IMG/VR virus record: IMGVR_UViG_3300020043_002456
Location: 1-35,486 of that record
DNA: 35,486 nucleotides
Strand: one strand, 5' to 3'
DNA from: a virus
Lineage: Duplodnaviria > Caudoviricetes
Below, in pieces: positions 24,738-35,486 of the stretch (positions are counted from its first letter, which is position 1; every line of letters starts with the position of its first letter). A program made the position numbers and the translations under genes. Below the pieces are notes generated by a model. It saw nothing but the letters and a program-made list of their open reading frames with translations. It was not told the origin of the DNA and searched no databases.

Positions 24738-25079
24738 TTACACCTCACTCATTATAGTCACCACTCGTCTACCCGACAACATTGCCAATTCAACATTCTG
24801 CTTTATCCTGTTTCGGAACGCTTCGGCTTGGTGTACGCTTGTGAAGTCATCATCTAACTTTGACACTTTGCGCTTTAACCTTTCGACAACATCGCTGATA
24901 ATATCAACTACATCGTGAACAGTTGTGTTGTGTACCATTGCGATTTCAGTGGTAGTTAATCCGTTGTTGTATTGAAGCCACATATCCCAATGTTGAGGTT
25001 GAATGGTTGCCGGTCGGATGCTATCCCGGTACGCATCGGACACCACTCGGATTGCTTTCCTTGTTTTAGGTTTAGCCAT
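24738..25079 (-). CDS. HTH DNA-binding protein (sigma region-4-like)
   Basis: YNNGLTTTEIAMVHNTTVHDVVDIISDVVERLKRK. Confidence 0.55.
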   Translation of the reverse strand: MAKPKTRKAIRVVSDAYRDSIRPATIQPQHWDMWLQYNNGLTTTEIAMVHNTTVHDVVDIISDVVERLKRKVSKLDDDFTSVHQAEAFRNRIKQNVELAMLSGRRVVTIMSEV

Positions 25080-25266
25080 TGGCCACCTCCTTTCTCCAAT
25101 TAATCAAGTGCTGATGCAACTCATTAAAGTTGTGGCATCTACCTGGTTGTGTTAGTTTCGCACCTGCTTTTGGTTTAGTAGCTGATGCCGTTGGAATGTG
25201 GAAGAAGATAGCTTGCATCCATTCCTTTGCGCTGAATTGAGCGCGGATTTCTGTTAGTAGGTTCAT
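25072..25266 (-). CDS. Hypothetical protein
   Basis: 64 aa ORF, ACCTATG leader, overlaps next gene. Confidence 0.6.
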   Translation of the reverse strand: MNLLTEIRAQFSAKEWMQAIFFHIPTASATKPKAGAKLTQPGRCHNFNELHQHLINWRKEVANG

Positions 25267-25325
25267 AGGTTTTATTGTTGTATAAGCGTTAATAATTAGC
25301 GGGTAGCGGGTAGTTAGCGGTAATA

Positions 25326-25989
25326 CTACCCGAAATCAAGAACTGTCTGCGAAATAAAATTTTTGAACCTTGCTTCCTGTGTTTCATAGTATCGTTTATC
25401 TATTTCACATCCCACAAAATGCAACTTTCTCTTGTGTGCTGAAATCCGACTGCTTCCGCTGCCCAAATGGGTATCTAAAATCAAATTTCCACGCTCACAA
25501 AATCGGTTAAAAATCCAGTCGTATAAATAAATCGGCTTTTGCGTTAGCACCAACCCAACTCTTGGTTATTTTTCGTAACGCTCCATTATAACTTGTCCAA
25601 GCCAATTCACCGTCTGCAAAGTCATTATCGCCTGTTCCTTTATCCCAAAATAACCAAGCTCCTGTTGGCTTAAGGTATTCAGTCATATAATTTCCACCCC
25701 ACACAATTTGATTTTTAGATACCCGAAACAACTGCTCCCAATATTCAGCAGTCGGAATAGCATTATCCCAATCGTTTTCGCCTCTGTATATTTTCTTCTT
25801 ACCATTGCCAAGTTGCATTTTGTTTGCTCCAATTCCATAAGGAGGGTCAACAACAGCAAGGTCAAAAATTTTATCAGGGTACTGTTTCATAATAGCGATA
25901 CAGTCGTAATTAAACACCGTACTACCGCTAACATCGGGTATAACCAATAGCGGGTTTTCTGCTGTGTTCAAAGTTTCGTTCTCGTTCAT
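25326..25989 (-). pseudogene. N6A/N4C DNA methyltransferase (beta class), frameshifted
   Basis: DLAVVDPPYG in 25507-25989; TQKP..LY, ILDTHLGSGSS, GCEID in 25326-25553; frames meet at AACGCAAAAG (25536-25545) and the usual HP before TQKP is missing. Confidence 0.85.
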
Positions 25990-26056
25990 ATTTTTATCTA
26001 TATTTTTAAATTTGTTCTTCGTATTCCGCTACTGGTCATACCCGCAGCCGTTATGC
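25926..26056 (+). repeat. attC-like site 1
   Basis: TAAC-AT-CGGGTATAACCAATAGCGG ... CCGCTACTGGTCATACCCG-CAGCC-GTTA. Confidence 0.85.
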
Positions 26057-26062
26057 GAGATG

Positions 26063-26959
26063 CTACGAACCACACTCCGAAAAGACCTCACAGCTATCAC
26101 CACCGAGTAAGTCAATTTGATATGAATATTCATCAGCATCATTTTTTATTATTCCATTCCAATTCTTTGCTTCTTCAAGTATCTGTTTTGCACTTCTGTT
26201 GTTTCTAAAAAAAGTAATGTCTTTTGGTAGTTCCTTTCCTTCTTTTATCCATTTTTCAATTCTTTGTGGTGGGAAAAAGTTTCCATACTTTTCTTCCATC
26301 TTATCCATAAATTCAAAAAACTTCGGTGTTTCTTTCGCAATTTGGTATAGCTTCTTATCTGCTTTTTTCCAACAAGTCTTGCAGTTCCCTTGATAGCCTT
26401 TCAACTCTAATCTAAAAGGCATTGAACGCCAATAAAAATTAATCATCGGCTTTGAAGCAGGTATCATTTTTCTATTTATCAACGGATAAATAAACCCCAT
26501 TTGTTTAGCCTTTGCATTCATTCTATCTGCTTCATCAATCCTTATTCCTATTGCGGTGTGGTATTTTTCGCCATTAAACCAATCTTTACCAAACGCTGAA
26601 ATAGGAGCACCTTTTAATTCTCTTGTGCATTGTGGGTTGGCTTGGTTTGGTATTCCATACTTTGAAATCATTTGCTCAAATGGTTCTCCATTCCTACTTG
26701 CATTATCAAAGTCGGTTCTATAATACCTTGTGCCTTTTCTATATTCGTGTATTACATCGGCTTCAATCCATTGTATGTTTAGTTTGAAATGCTTATCACA
26801 TTGCTCTACAAATTCAAGAGTTTCCTCGTTTTCTTGTCCTGTGTTTGCAAATACAAATACTATGTTTTCATAGCCATATTCCTCATAGTGGTTATTAAGC
26901 CATTGAGCCATAAATGCTGATGTTTCGCCACCAGAAAACGATACTAATAAATTCTTCAT
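26063..26959 (-). CDS. PAPS reductase / adenine nucleotide alpha-hydrolase family protein
   Basis: VSFSGGETS PP-loop, FANTGQENEETL, CTRELK, GIRIDE, YPL, GNCKTCWKK. Confidence 0.85.
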   Translation of the reverse strand: MKNLLVSFSGGETSAFMAQWLNNHYEEYGYENIVFVFANTGQENEETLEFVEQCDKHFKLNIQWIEADVIHEYRKGTRYYRTDFDNASRNGEPFEQMISKYGIPNQANPQCTRELKGAPISAFGKDWFNGEKYHTAIGIRIDEADRMNAKAKQMGFIYPLINRKMIPASKPMINFYWRSMPFRLELKGYQGNCKTCWKKADKKLYQIAKETPKFFEFMDKMEEKYGNFFPPQRIEKWIKEGKELPKDITFFRNNRSAKQILEEAKNWNGIIKNDADEYSYQIDLLGGDSCEVFSECGS

Positions 26960-26994
26960 CCTAATTAAAATTTGAGTTAAGAAAGAAGCACCTC

Positions 26995-27126
26995 GCATAA
27001 CAGCACCTAACCAAAAGCAGGGGTTTACTGCTCCTAAGAAAGTTTTGTGCTATATTTAAGTTCTGTATTTCGTTCATAATTTTGTGGTTAAATTCCCTGC
27101 CTTCGGTTAGCTGCATCACGTTATAA
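26995..27126 (+). repeat. attC-like site 2
   Basis: TAAC-A-GCACCTAACCAAAAGCAGGG ... CCCTGCCTTCGGTTAGCTGC-ATCAC-GTTA. Confidence 0.85.
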
Positions 27127-27130
27127 GAAA

Positions 27131-27217
27131 TGGGGGGTGTAGCGGATTCTCGAGCCTCCCCAGCTACAGTCGGAGTTACGGTTGCGACCCGTTCAGTTTG
27201 CGTTCTAAATCCCCCCA
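27131..27217 (-). ncRNA. Candidate structured ncRNA forming the whole body of cassette 3
   Basis: GGGGGG/CCCCCC closing stem ending CCA, inner stems TTTAG/CTGAA, CGG/CCG, TGTAGC/GCTACA; GC-rich; no credible ORF. Confidence 0.5.
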
Positions 27218-27222
27218 CTATC

Positions 27223-27345
27223 TTATAACAGCAAATATGCGAAATAACCAGTACAATAACCAACTTCCTCGTCTAACCCCGAACATAGGTTATTATTTTT
27301 CGGGTTTGGCGGTCGGTTACTTCGCATATTTGCAAAACGTTATAA
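27223..27345 (+). repeat. attC-like site 3
   Basis: TAAC-A-GCAAATATGCGAAATAACC ... GGTTACTTCGCATATTTGC-AAAAC-GTTA. Confidence 0.85.
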
Positions 27346-27351
27346 GCAACC

Positions 27352-27564
27352 TTACAAAGACTGCAACTCCGACTTGACATCATTCCAATATTTATTATAT
27401 TCAAATTGACTATCTGTTATAGCAGGTCTTGAATTTATGATTTCTTTGACAGCTATTAATGCACAATTTTTAGCAAATTCTTTATTTATTTTGCCTCCCC
27501 AATAACCACCGCATAATGGTTTGTATTTATCTACTAATTCAGTAGCTTTTTCTTTTGCGTTCAT
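27352..27564 (-). CDS. Hypothetical protein, cassette 4 cargo
   Basis: MNAKEKATELVDKY...AKNCALIAVKEII...YWNDVKSEL; stop codon about 10 nt from the GTT boundary. Confidence 0.75.
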   Translation of the reverse strand: MNAKEKATELVDKYKPLCGGYWGGKINKEFAKNCALIAVKEIINSRPAITDSQFEYNKYWNDVKSELQSL

Positions 27565-27601
27565 ATTATTGTTTTTAAATTAAATTAGTAATAAAGGCAG
27601 C

Positions 27602-27656
27602 GTATAACAGCACCTATGCGCCATTAAAACGACCGCCAATCTGCAATCCGTTACCT
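27602..27656 (+). repeat. attC-like site 4 (short, arms mismatched)
   Basis: TAAC-A-GCA...TGC-AATCC-GTTA outer frame present, inner arms CCTATGCG vs CGCCAATC do not pair. Confidence 0.65.
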
Positions 27657-27673
27657 GTAATTGTAAATTTTTA

Positions 27674-27898
27674 TTAAACATTTTCCCCTCCAAAAATCAA
27701 ATAAATTTTAAATGATACTTCCTGTTTTTCACTATATTGGTATCTTCCAAATTCTCCAAAAATTTCATCTCCAAATTTAGATGCAAATTCGTGCTTATCA
27801 TTATCATCAATTGGCGGTGTTATCAATCCAACTTTTGTACAATCTTCAATAAATTTTACGATGCAATTCACTTCATCGTTTGTCATTCCATTTTTCAT
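27674..27898 (-). CDS. Hypothetical protein, cassette 5 cargo
   Basis: 74 aa AT-rich ORF filling the cassette. Confidence 0.65.
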   Translation of the reverse strand: MKNGMTNDEVNCIVKFIEDCTKVGLITPPIDDNDKHEFASKFGDEIFGEFGRYQYSEKQEVSFKIYLIFGGENV

Positions 27899-27981
27899 AT
27901 TAATTAATTTAAAATTTGCCTACGCTAAAAATGTTTAATAAAAATTTACAACTGGCTTACGCTAAAAATCCCACCGCACAC

Positions 27982-28055
27982 AGGCAACAGCACATACACG
28001 CTATTTCCCCTCCCTCAATCCAACGCTCACAGCGTGTATCTGCATCACGTTAATC
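27982..28055 (+). repeat. attC-like site 5
   Basis: CAAC-A-GCACATACACGCT ... AGCGTGTATCTGC-ATCAC-GTTA. Confidence 0.8.
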
Positions 28056-28224
28056 AATCCCCATCCTCATCATTTATCCGCTTTACAACCGCCTTGTATT
28101 CGGCAGTTGCTTTGAGTTTTTTAACGTATTGTTTTATTTGCGCTCGGTACATTAGCGGTATTCGTATGCGCACGGCAGGCGGCTCCAATTTGCGGCCTTG
28201 GTTTCGATCGGAGTGTGGTCTCAT
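28054..28224 (-). CDS. Small basic protein, possibly DNA-binding (56 aa, not in track)
   Basis: MRPHSDRNQGRKLEPPAVRIRIPLMYRAQIKQYVKKLK...; ATGA-coupled to upstream peptide. Confidence 0.6.
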   Translation of the reverse strand: MRPHSDRNQGRKLEPPAVRIRIPLMYRAQIKQYVKKLKATAEYKAVVKRINDEDGD

Positions 28225-28736: not shown

Positions 28737-29177
28737 TTAATTCAATACCGACAAAATAAATATCATTACCGCCCCCAATACCGCAATGCGCTTGTGCCTG
28801 CGCTGTTTTCTAATCTCTTTATGTTGCGCTACTATGAGCGTGCTGTCGGCAACAATTACGCTATCTTTAACGGCAATCTCAACTTCTTTTATCTGTATCA
28901 ATGTATCGCATTCTTGGACCACCAACTGAATGAATGTATCACACTCTGCCGGTGCAATGGTGCGAATATACTTTACCCTTGTTACATAAACAGTATCTCG
29001 TATTCTACTTTTGGCCTCGGCCATTCTTGCACGTTCCCTTAACACTTCGGTTTGGTTCAATAAACTATCAATGTTGTGATTAACATTAAACGGCTCAATG
29101 TTCGTTCTGTGGCACGTACGGTAAGTCATGGCCACCAACACAAGTAACAAGGCGGCAAGTTGCAGATATACTCTCAT
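28737..29177 (-). CDS. Putative spanin-like lysis protein
   Basis: N-terminal hydrophobic helix, coiled coil, C-terminal hydrophobic helix; end of lysis cluster. Confidence 0.45.
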   Translation of the reverse strand: MRVYLQLAALLLVLVAMTYRTCHRTNIEPFNVNHNIDSLLNQTEVLRERARMAEAKSRIRDTVYVTRVKYIRTIAPAECDTFIQLVVQECDTLIQIKEVEIAVKDSVIVADSTLIVAQHKEIRKQRRHKRIAVLGAVMIFILSVLN

Positions 29178-29596
29178 ACTACTATAATGTTTTCAACTTT
29201 GACCTTGAATGGGATGCGCTTATTGGTATGATCTTCCTCTGCATACGGCTTCAAAGTATAACCGATTGGCAATGTTCTACGGCTCGGAAACGAAAACCCT
29301 TGTGTCATATCATTGACAATGCAATAGTATTCATAACGGCTCATTTTCAATGTTACGTGGCACAACTCCCCTACTTGCACCTCGCCAATGTACTTGCTTA
29401 TTTGTTTGCCGTTCAAGTACGTGTAAAGAAACAATCTGCAAGTGCTTGTATCTTCGCTTCTATTGATGCCTATGCGCACGCTGTCAACATGATGATGCCC
29501 GCGTGAAAATCCTGCAATCTTTTGAATGCCCTCGCTCGGTTGCATGTCCGGCACGGTAAACTTAAAGGTCATTATTCGGGGGTTGAGTATTAGCAT
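29174..29596 (-). CDS. Hypothetical beta-rich protein
   Basis: 140 aa ORF coupled to neighbours; KIAGFSRGHHHVDSVRIG. Confidence 0.55.
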   Translation of the reverse strand: MLILNPRIMTFKFTVPDMQPSEGIQKIAGFSRGHHHVDSVRIGINRSEDTSTCRLFLYTYLNGKQISKYIGEVQVGELCHVTLKMSRYEYYCIVNDMTQGFSFPSRRTLPIGYTLKPYAEEDHTNKRIPFKVKVENIIVV

Positions 29597-34671: not shown

Positions 34672-35486
34672 AATATTCTACGTTCTAATTCAATTGTCTG
34701 CTTGCCACCTGCATCAACACTTACCTCTGTTGTTACTGACTTGATGAGGTACGTTCCTTTGCGTTCTGGGAACTTCCAACTGTCAACAATGGCATAATCA
34801 CCGGGTATCATTTTCGGTTCTAAAAACGTTTTAAAACTGCCATAATAACCTGTGTAATTCGCCTGCTCTAAAAACGAATTGCACTTAAGATCTAAATCGG
34901 CCTTCGTTCCACCGTATTGAAACACTGTGCGAATATCACCTGTTGGGTCACCATAAGTAAACTCCTCACGGTCATTGTTCTTAATCAATATACCTTTGAC
35001 TTGGACTTTAACATCATCTTTCTTTAAGTATGTCAACTCCATACCATCGTATATCATTTTCTCAAACAGAAACACGGCCGATTGCGCTGTATCTTTATAG
35101 AATGGCAAACCTACCTTTAAAACGCCATCGACAAAGAACGAATATAAACCATATTGGTCACGTAATACTTGCAACACCTTACCGATGCTTGCTCCTTGTA
35201 ACCTAAATTGTCCTAATTCAGCATTGATGGCCTTGAATGGTGTTGAGGTGTTTTCAAGCATTTTCTCTAAAAACGTGCGCAAATTAACCGACTTAAAAGT
35301 TAAGTTTGGTGCTATGGCCTGCTTCAACAAAAACATTTCATCTTCGCATAATAATTCAATAGGTACATTGTTGTTAATCTTTGCAATGTAACCTGTGAAT
35401 ATAACGGTTTCGTTTGGGTAATATGCGCCAATGATTGTAACCTTATCACCCCTGCGCATCTATGCCTTTGCGACCTCGTATTCGTT
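34668..35486 (-). CDS. Baseplate hub / late control D-like protein (3' part, second allele)
   Basis: FTGYIAKI, IELLCEDEMFLLK, GYYGSFKTF, GTYLIKSV; N-terminal 64 aa present only in copy at 945. Confidence 0.7.
34707..35486. repeat. Right copy of imperfect terminal direct repeat
   Basis: Aligns without gaps to 1-780. Confidence 0.95.

Follow-up and report, generated by a model that had tools for sequence, protein, structure and literature searches.

Integron-like cassettes behind a fixed entry site in a phage genome that encodes no tyrosine recombinase

IMG/VR virus record IMGVR_UViG_3300020043_002456, a phage genome of 35,486 bp whose full length is called the window here, carries at 25313–28048 an array of five cassettes that resembles the cassette array of an integron and stands directly behind a fixed entry site. 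The array is real, well supported by comparative evidence, and has the look of an active one. Alignments with relatives show that the unit gained and lost is GTT, cargo, AAC, hairpin and C, that the left junction stays the same and is free of hairpins, and that newer units precede older ones. With no recombinase encoded in its genome, the phage likely borrows an unusual enzyme, integron-like in kind, from a host that is probably a member of the Bacteroidota. Site-specific cassette recombination, by an enzyme of the host or of a phage, is very likely the process at work; the fuller proposal, in which an Xer-like enzyme acting in trans, most likely a Bacteroidota chromosomal one, moves circles and so swaps cassettes behind the fixed entry site, is probable.

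Structure of the cassette array

Each cassette closes with an AAC…CGTT hairpin. The GTT boundaries lie at 25313, 26050, 27120, 27339, 27650 and 28049, all of them where an earlier note, made from the sequence alone, had put them, and the closing AAC triplets lie at 25930, 26999, 27227, 27606 and 27986. Over the 13 nt beyond GTT and AAC, the right arm matched the start of its own cassette at 10, 11, 10, 9 and 6 positions (cassettes 1–5) versus 4, 6, 6, 3 and 2 for the start of the next cassette. Cassette ends that are complementary to each other, as the note had described, were thus seen in all five; the complement it quoted for cassette 5, however, belongs to an internal 24-bp inverted repeat, and the true arm beside the AAC of that cassette matches at only 5/7 positions. 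Genome-wide, 8 of 22,647 GTT/AAC pairs have at least 10 matches, and three of these are cassettes 1–3. A hairpin detector found four sites in the window (site 4 was missed) versus one site in total over 20 block-shuffled windows; a naive scan of fold energy over the window did not single the sites out. In 5/5 sites the better fold is that of the minus strand, and a junction as predicted for the circle gives a better fold than the junction present in the array. The attributes of attC sites were found here: R'' and R' complementary in the circular cassette, an imperfect palindrome, and a bottom-strand bias.

In plus-strand order, cassette 1 (25313–26049, 737 bp, own-end complement 10/13) ends in attC-like site 1 (25930–26052, 123 nt, better fold on the minus strand). 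Cassette 2 (26050–27119, 1070 bp), which has homologues with the same two ends in relatives L006 and L164, ends in site 2 (26999–27122, 124 nt), and cassette 3 (27120–27338, 219 bp), without an open reading frame (ORF) of its own, in site 3 (27227–27341, 115 nt). Cassette 4 (27339–27649, 311 bp), to which a cassette in L035 is related, ends in site 4 (27606–27652, 47 nt), whose loop is common to the published phage site P12002L_attC1 (PMC9892861). The arms of site 4 are mismatched: the inner arms do not pair with each other and the fold is weak (−3.6 kcal/mol). As agreement with the intact core of relatives is limited to its right arm, site 4 is probably a hybrid and damaged; the five units described earlier are present, with the palindrome spoiled in this one. 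Cassette 5 (27650–28048, 399 bp) ends in site 5 (27986–28051, 66 nt), a core that goes with other cargoes in relatives. Its ORF stands between the copies of a perfect 24-bp inverted repeat (27661–27684 and 27928–27951), which nearly continues the end stem of the cassette and is possibly a trace of cassette formation. A direct repeat is also present in this cassette (27906–27932 and 27943–27969).

The entry site (25293–25316, plus strand) is attI-like and not a hairpin, with a left box TAGC at −9 to −6, a 5-nt spacer and GTTA at 25313. It has the character of an attI site, a fixed double-stranded site with a GTT R box and a degenerate L box, and is accompanied by a constant left junction, an empty allele and stacking at the front, and the left junction is a dedicated attI-like entry site, a feature absent from the earlier note. 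At the other end, the right flank (28049–28224, minus strand) consists of the remainder of the original target and a conserved upstream gene (28054–28224). The rightmost hairpin varies and the left junction is constant and lacks a hairpin; each hairpin is therefore assigned to the cassette on its left, with plus as the top strand, and all cassette genes of the window are consequently inverted (4/4 coding cassettes relative to their hairpins). The crossover had been placed at G|TT in the earlier note. Breaks do fall at this boundary, but comparison resolves the crossover only to the shared GTTA, G|TT being a convention taken over from integrons.

Gain, loss and stacking of cassettes in relatives

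A search with a flanking protein retrieved 12 viral loci; an 18-nt entry motif led to 28 stretches in viruses and 54 in metagenomes. The flanks of the relatives are 80–95% identical to the window, and the entry site is kept whatever follows it. In 10 of the 12 flank-protein loci the alignment reaches the entry site and then stops at 25316–25325; in 9 it resumes at 28028–28054. Locus L027 is an empty allele that aligns to 24930–25316 and 28049–28220 with GTTA alone shared; L358 also looks empty, with weak support, as its right flank is shared over only about 30 nt. There are 42 distinct entry-anchored arrays, 18 of which end at the same right flank and hold inserts of 0 to about 3.2 kb. Their 71 parsed units fall into 61 clusters, and these unit counts are lower bounds because the parser missed some sites and merged some cassettes.

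Several cassettes occur intact in more than one place. Cassette C1 was found at 99–100% identity as the first in L002, the second in L019 and the fourth in L208, and cassette C6, likewise at 99–100% identity, as the first in L017 and the second in L346; these shifts are as expected if new cassettes enter at the left. Order can also be swapped, as L004 has C4 followed by C5 and L371 has C5 followed by 126 nt identical to the start of C4. Homologues of the window's cassette 2 stand second in L006 and first behind a host-type entry site in L164. In assembled contigs from four runs of four studies, matches to cassette 2 start at 26049/26050 in 3/4 runs; one contig continues after 25317 with a different first cassette, and in run X2 cassette 5 is missing from a contig that joins a core of the site 4 type to the right flank. 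The comparison of relatives that the earlier note had proposed thus came out in its favor, with gene content breaking at GTTA, an empty allele, and cassettes intact in other positions.

The same features bear on an account in which no site-specific enzyme takes part and recombination at conserved linkers, homologous or illegitimate, exchanges the modules. Such an account would fit the cores common to several cassettes, the resemblance of site 4 to a hybrid joined in a shared loop, the variation of genes upstream of the entry site through repeated leader sequences, and the exonuclease and single-stranded-DNA-binding protein (SSB) that the phage encodes (PHROGs). It is nevertheless very improbable: insertion at the entry site shares just four bases (GTTA only), precision is seen in the empty allele, in the stacking and in the order swap, cassette ends are complementary to each other and not to their neighbors, and in chromosomes the same sites are tied to a recombinase. 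Alongside site-specific recombination, a second route of cargo/core reassortment also operates, as seen from L006, L035, the joint 27605–27986 and site 4.

The entry region holds further variation. A second cassette array with the same entry motif lies near window position 29860 in L001, L002 and L014, and an array there occurs in L003, L008, L010 and L026 too; the window has none at that place. Gain and loss do occur at the entry site, as the earlier note had held, but its single acquisition hotspot becomes more than one in the family. Left of the entry site (25266–25300), L001, L002, L003, L005, L008, L009 and L010 have 0.2–1.5 kb of other genes between repeated leader sequences, a second kind of mosaicism, without hairpins. 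The first unit behind the entry motif in L030 is a cassette of 95 bp, a hairpin with almost no cargo. Among the metagenome matches to the entry motif, 28 had neither the family context nor any site, many being short-repeat or chance matches. The sole entry-motif stretch near a recombinase (L336) was rejected, as it proved to be an XerD-like locus, rich in GC and devoid of cassettes.

The site family in Bacteroidota and their phages

A narrow two-arm pattern occurs in an estimated 1,600 or so stretches in GTDB genomes, nearly all from Bacteroidota among the 80 matches listed, and in about 280 viral stretches, also by estimate. The non-canonical Bacteroidota sites that the earlier note had supposed are thus to be found in chromosomes. 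In 40 diverse sites, 89.5% of cells pair versus 65.3% in shuffles, and compensatory change on both sides was seen in 19/24 pairs, with pair counts used as the evidence for covariation; the sites were gathered with a stem detector, which in part builds these statistics in. When the register was not fixed, the R'-side arm was longer by four bases in 34/40 units and by three in 5/40, and a G.G mismatch is frequent at stem position 4. Canonical attC sites, which have an unpaired spacer at the center and extrahelical bases along the stem, have a near-zero register. In bacteria and viruses alike, own-end complementarity spans 15 positions, of which position 11 is a fixed mismatch; it amounts to 0.67–0.97 at positions 4–9 and 12–15, as against 0.20–0.59 for the next cassette from position 5 on.

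Gene sense separates the two groups. Bacterial cassette genes are mostly in the same sense as the site (74/93, with 11 inverse, mostly from four loci with phage-like genes), and viral cassette genes are mostly inverse (160/177). The stems could be seen as mRNA structures instead of DNA recombination sites, acting in processing or translation at either side of portable phage genes: in phages the coding strand is the better-folding one, and 63/160 inverse ORFs begin within their own hairpin. Strand bias, measured with a strand-neutral detector, points the other way. Wobble pairs on the bottom versus the top strand number 169 vs 33 with viral bottom-strand genes and still 105 vs 25 where the gene is on the top strand, in 72 cassettes of bacteria; fold stability also favors the bottom, non-coding strand in 52/72 of these. 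The bias of the fold follows the site and not the gene, and wobble on the bottom strand whichever strand is coding argues for a DNA strand signal. A role in RNA would also leave the fixed entry site unexplained. As the whole explanation, mRNA structure is extremely improbable; a secondary RNA role of the stems in phages is possible.

Recombinases linked to the sites

Starting from the sites, several chromosomal loci were found in which a co-oriented tyrosine recombinase of 345–589 amino acids ends 23–254 nt before the first cassette. Starting from the enzyme, 15/30 recombinase loci have a site within 1.5 kb or less of downstream sequence, four of the 30 having under 250 nt of it, and none has a site upstream. 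A linked chromosomal recombinase, for which the earlier note had suggested a scan, is therefore present beside the sites in Bacteroidota. The linked enzymes align best to archaeal XerA. All of the seven scored fall under the TIGR02249 integron-integrase cut-off (192–212 vs 265 bits), and in the region of the IntI insertion L089 has 29 residues between aligned blocks versus 71 in IntI4, about 40 fewer, so the IntI-specific I2 insertion is not there. The IntI-type signature proposed earlier is borne out in its attC-like and attI-like features and not in its enzyme, a shorter Xer-like protein. A related tyrosine recombinase gene also lies within a bacterial array (L093, 4717–7271), apparently as part of an inserted element.

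Some phages have an enzyme of their own. At 5/80 viral loci a recombinase of 264–277 amino acids (one cut by the end of the locus) faces its entry site head-on, in the slot that is occupied in the window by a conserved 64-aa gene left of the entry site (25072–25266, minus strand). The cassette mechanism could therefore be the same with another enzyme, a small recombinase supplied by a prophage or a co-infecting phage, or once encoded by an ancestor of this phage and since lost. With a profile built from 40 entry sites of other phages, the site of the window ranks 1 of 1040 GTT sites, a far better fit than with a host-trained profile. This source is rather unlikely, as entry sites beside phage recombinases are AT-rich, unlike the window's, and the near-identical stacked arrays point to ongoing activity, which would require a frequent donor. 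Recent loss is not seen either, with PF00589 in 0/26 records fetched with the entry motif or flank of this phage, two of them near-complete. The terminase of this phage was matched by 0/5 of the recombinase-bearing viral records, which are mostly fragments and so uninformative on this point. The host recombinase proposed in the earlier note thus stays the likeliest donor, though not the sole candidate.

Host entry sites (20, from 39 loci examined) have a left box mostly ending in TATA, a 5-nt spacer and GTT. The window's entry site keeps their register and their left part and is identical to the closest, that of L307, at 13/17 positions.

Proposed mechanism

We propose that an Xer-like tyrosine recombinase, acting in trans, would insert the cassettes and excise them in circular form. 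Upon excision, the two ends of a cassette would complete a hairpin on the minus (bottom) strand, predicted to have a 15-bp outer stem with one fixed mismatch, an asymmetric bulge of 3–4 nt and an inner stem often with a G.G mismatch. The partner of this single-stranded site in recombination would be either another hairpin or the entry site in double-stranded form. The inverted genes would be read by a leftward phage transcript coming from the right, and a methyltransferase cargo may help against host restriction. Cargo and hairpin core may be partly reassorted by homologous or second-side recombination.

In a wider form of this proposal, to which we give about even chances, Bacteroidota and their phages would share a second, parallel integron system with an Xer-like enzyme that lacks the I2 insertion; phages without a recombinase, like the present one, would carry no more than a mimic of its entry site, hijack the host enzyme and stock inverted counter-defense cassettes. 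The cassette pool in this wider form comprises anti-restriction methyltransferases, small proteins and ORF-less structured RNAs.

Several points weigh against a borrowed host enzyme, beside the detector-dependent pairing statistics given above. The evidence consists of sequences of assembled contigs. Cargo-core reassortment (L006, L035, and the joint 27605–27986 in 2/4 runs) does not fit R-side recombination alone. The full host-trained profile ranks the window's entry site only 24 or 19 of 1040, rank 1 with host positions came only after a post hoc choice of positions, and the window's TAGC stands in place of the TATA left box found in 16/20 host sites. A close homologue of the recombinase (E ≤ 1e-70) occurs in only 29/201 sampled Bacteroidota genomes, and 5/80 viral loci do have a recombinase of their own. 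Finally, according to the accessible text of two papers, attC needs the IntI insertion for its extrahelical bases to be held (PMC4792948; PMC8138268), and the linked enzymes do without what these papers call essential for hairpin recombination.

Cassette cargo

Cassette 1 carries a DNA methyltransferase gene on the minus strand (25326–25989; Pfam N6_N4_Mtase, PHROG DNA methyltransferase), split in two frames (25507–25989 and 25326–25553). The two halves match consecutive stretches of single homologues, and the start of the gene falls within the loop of site 1. In some relatives, L002 and L006, a gene homologous to it is found upstream, outside the array. The other coding cassettes also have their genes on the minus strand: a PAPS-reductase-like gene in cassette 2 (26063–26998, an ORF of 311 aa; Pfam PF01507, phrog_424), an ORF of 70 aa in cassette 4 (27352–27564; phrog_21441), and an ORF of 74 aa in cassette 5 (27674–27898).

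The cargo of cassette 3 is 110 nt long, and its minus strand folds as a multi-arm structure (z = −3.7). ARAGORN found no tRNA in it, Rfam gave 0 matches on the window at the gathering threshold (and three weak ones far below it), and the cargo was unmatched in viral contigs and GenBank phages. Two unrelated ORF-less cargoes of 107–110 nt fold strongly, this one (27120–27229, minus strand) and that of cassette C5 in L004; C5 is mobile among the relatives L004, L371, L368, L344 and L032. In terms of the predicted folds, such cargoes may be small-RNA cassettes or merely long self-pairing empty units.

The phage and its host

The virus record of 35,486 bp is the entire assembly and is rated complete by CheckV. 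An overlap of 774 bp between the two contig ends (92% identity) shows that the whole circular genome is covered. The two ends (1–774 and 34707–35480) are 92% identical versions of one baseplate gene, which suggests assembly from mixed strains. Pfam identified a Mu-type portal, terminase, tape measure, primase and helicase, and the minus strand bears all the main genes. No tyrosine recombinase was found by Pfam (51 ORFs), by PHROGs (42 window ORFs) or in a six-frame PF00589 search, as the earlier note had also concluded; an intI gene in cis is thus missing from the whole circular genome as well as from the 26 related records. Among GenBank phage records, 37 matched the array region, every one through cargo genes, and as 35 of these are named for Bacteroidota genera, we infer a Bacteroidota host. 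A small protein with the RNA polymerase alpha C-terminal domain (PF03118; 24397–24717, minus strand) is possibly a modulator of host transcription. A sigma-70 promoter scan gave a result at chance level.

Relation to known systems

Like integrons, the element has cassettes bounded by YAAC…GTTR hairpins of variable sequence with a bottom-strand bias, an entry site that is double-stranded and whose left box is degenerate, and polar stacking and reordering. It differs in having no integrase in cis, in linked enzymes that lie under the TIGR02249 cut-off with about 40 residues fewer than IntI4, in chromosomal entry sites at the 3' end of a co-oriented recombinase gene, and in hairpins with net 3–4 extra R'-side bases (39/40) and 15-bp own-end complementarity. 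In integrons, attC lies downstream of a gene read from Pc near attI; here the phage cassette genes are inverted (4/4 in the window and 160/177 in viruses). The element therefore appears to work like an integron but not a canonical one, departing from it in integrase in cis, I2 insertion and gene orientation.

With five attC-like sites, the array falls within the definition of a cluster of attC sites lacking an integrase (CALIN), two or more attC sites with no integrase in the vicinity. In the available text of the IntegronFinder 2.0 paper, CALINs are proposed to be degraded, inactive remains of integrons (PMC9024848). The present array does not appear to be such a relic, since 99–100% identical cassettes in differing positions and orders point to recent remodeling.

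The closest precedent is the study of Qi et al. (2023; PMC9892861), cited here for those parts of its text that were available. It reports 17 phage CALINs, integrase-less attC clusters in phages with methyltransferase cargo, as here, and recombination by IntI1 of 5/6 sites tested. P12002L_attC1, a 47-nt site of the window's family with the same loop as site 4, was the sole one of the six that IntI1 did not integrate. In that text the CALINs are treated as captured components, with no entry site, cognate enzyme or gene inversion named, in contrast to the actively remodeled array here. It tests two sites in P12002L, where the present detector finds about a dozen. Its attC2 maps to a sequence present twice in Polaribacter phage P12002L (L163; about 29165–29250 and 37200–37270), both copies at the left edge of gene runs, and may by position be an entry site rather than an attC.

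Other literature touches on parts of the system. For integron-like simple tyrosine recombinases, the available text describes no cassette arrays or hairpin substrates for insertion-less members (PMC8138268). Flavobacterium phage vB_FspS_filifjonk9-1 (L322, 1946–9372) has 11 sites of the family around methyltransferase and accessory genes. In this phage, according to the main text of its description, absence of one methyltransferase accompanies lower plating efficiency on one host, and that text does not contain "integron", "integrase" or "palindrom" (Nilsson et al., 2020; PMC7077304). The accessible part of the IntegronFinder 2.0 report gives one complete integron in Bacteroidetes (PMC9024848). 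No account of a Bacteroidota cassette system was found in the literature searched, which did not cover most subscription journals.

If the proposal is true, cassette recombination at hairpin sites would be possible without the IntI-specific insertion, which bears on the evolution of integron integrases from Xer. It would mean a widespread cassette system for Bacteroidota, where IntegronFinder has turned up very few complete integrons, and a directed mechanism for part of the mosaicism and methyltransferase turnover in their phages. To this the present locus adds population evidence in the form of an empty allele, stacking and an order swap, and cultured phage-host pairs of Flavobacterium and Polaribacter make the system directly testable. 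Should the parallel integron system exist, a bacterial device for adaptation would have been turned into a phage device for counter-defense.

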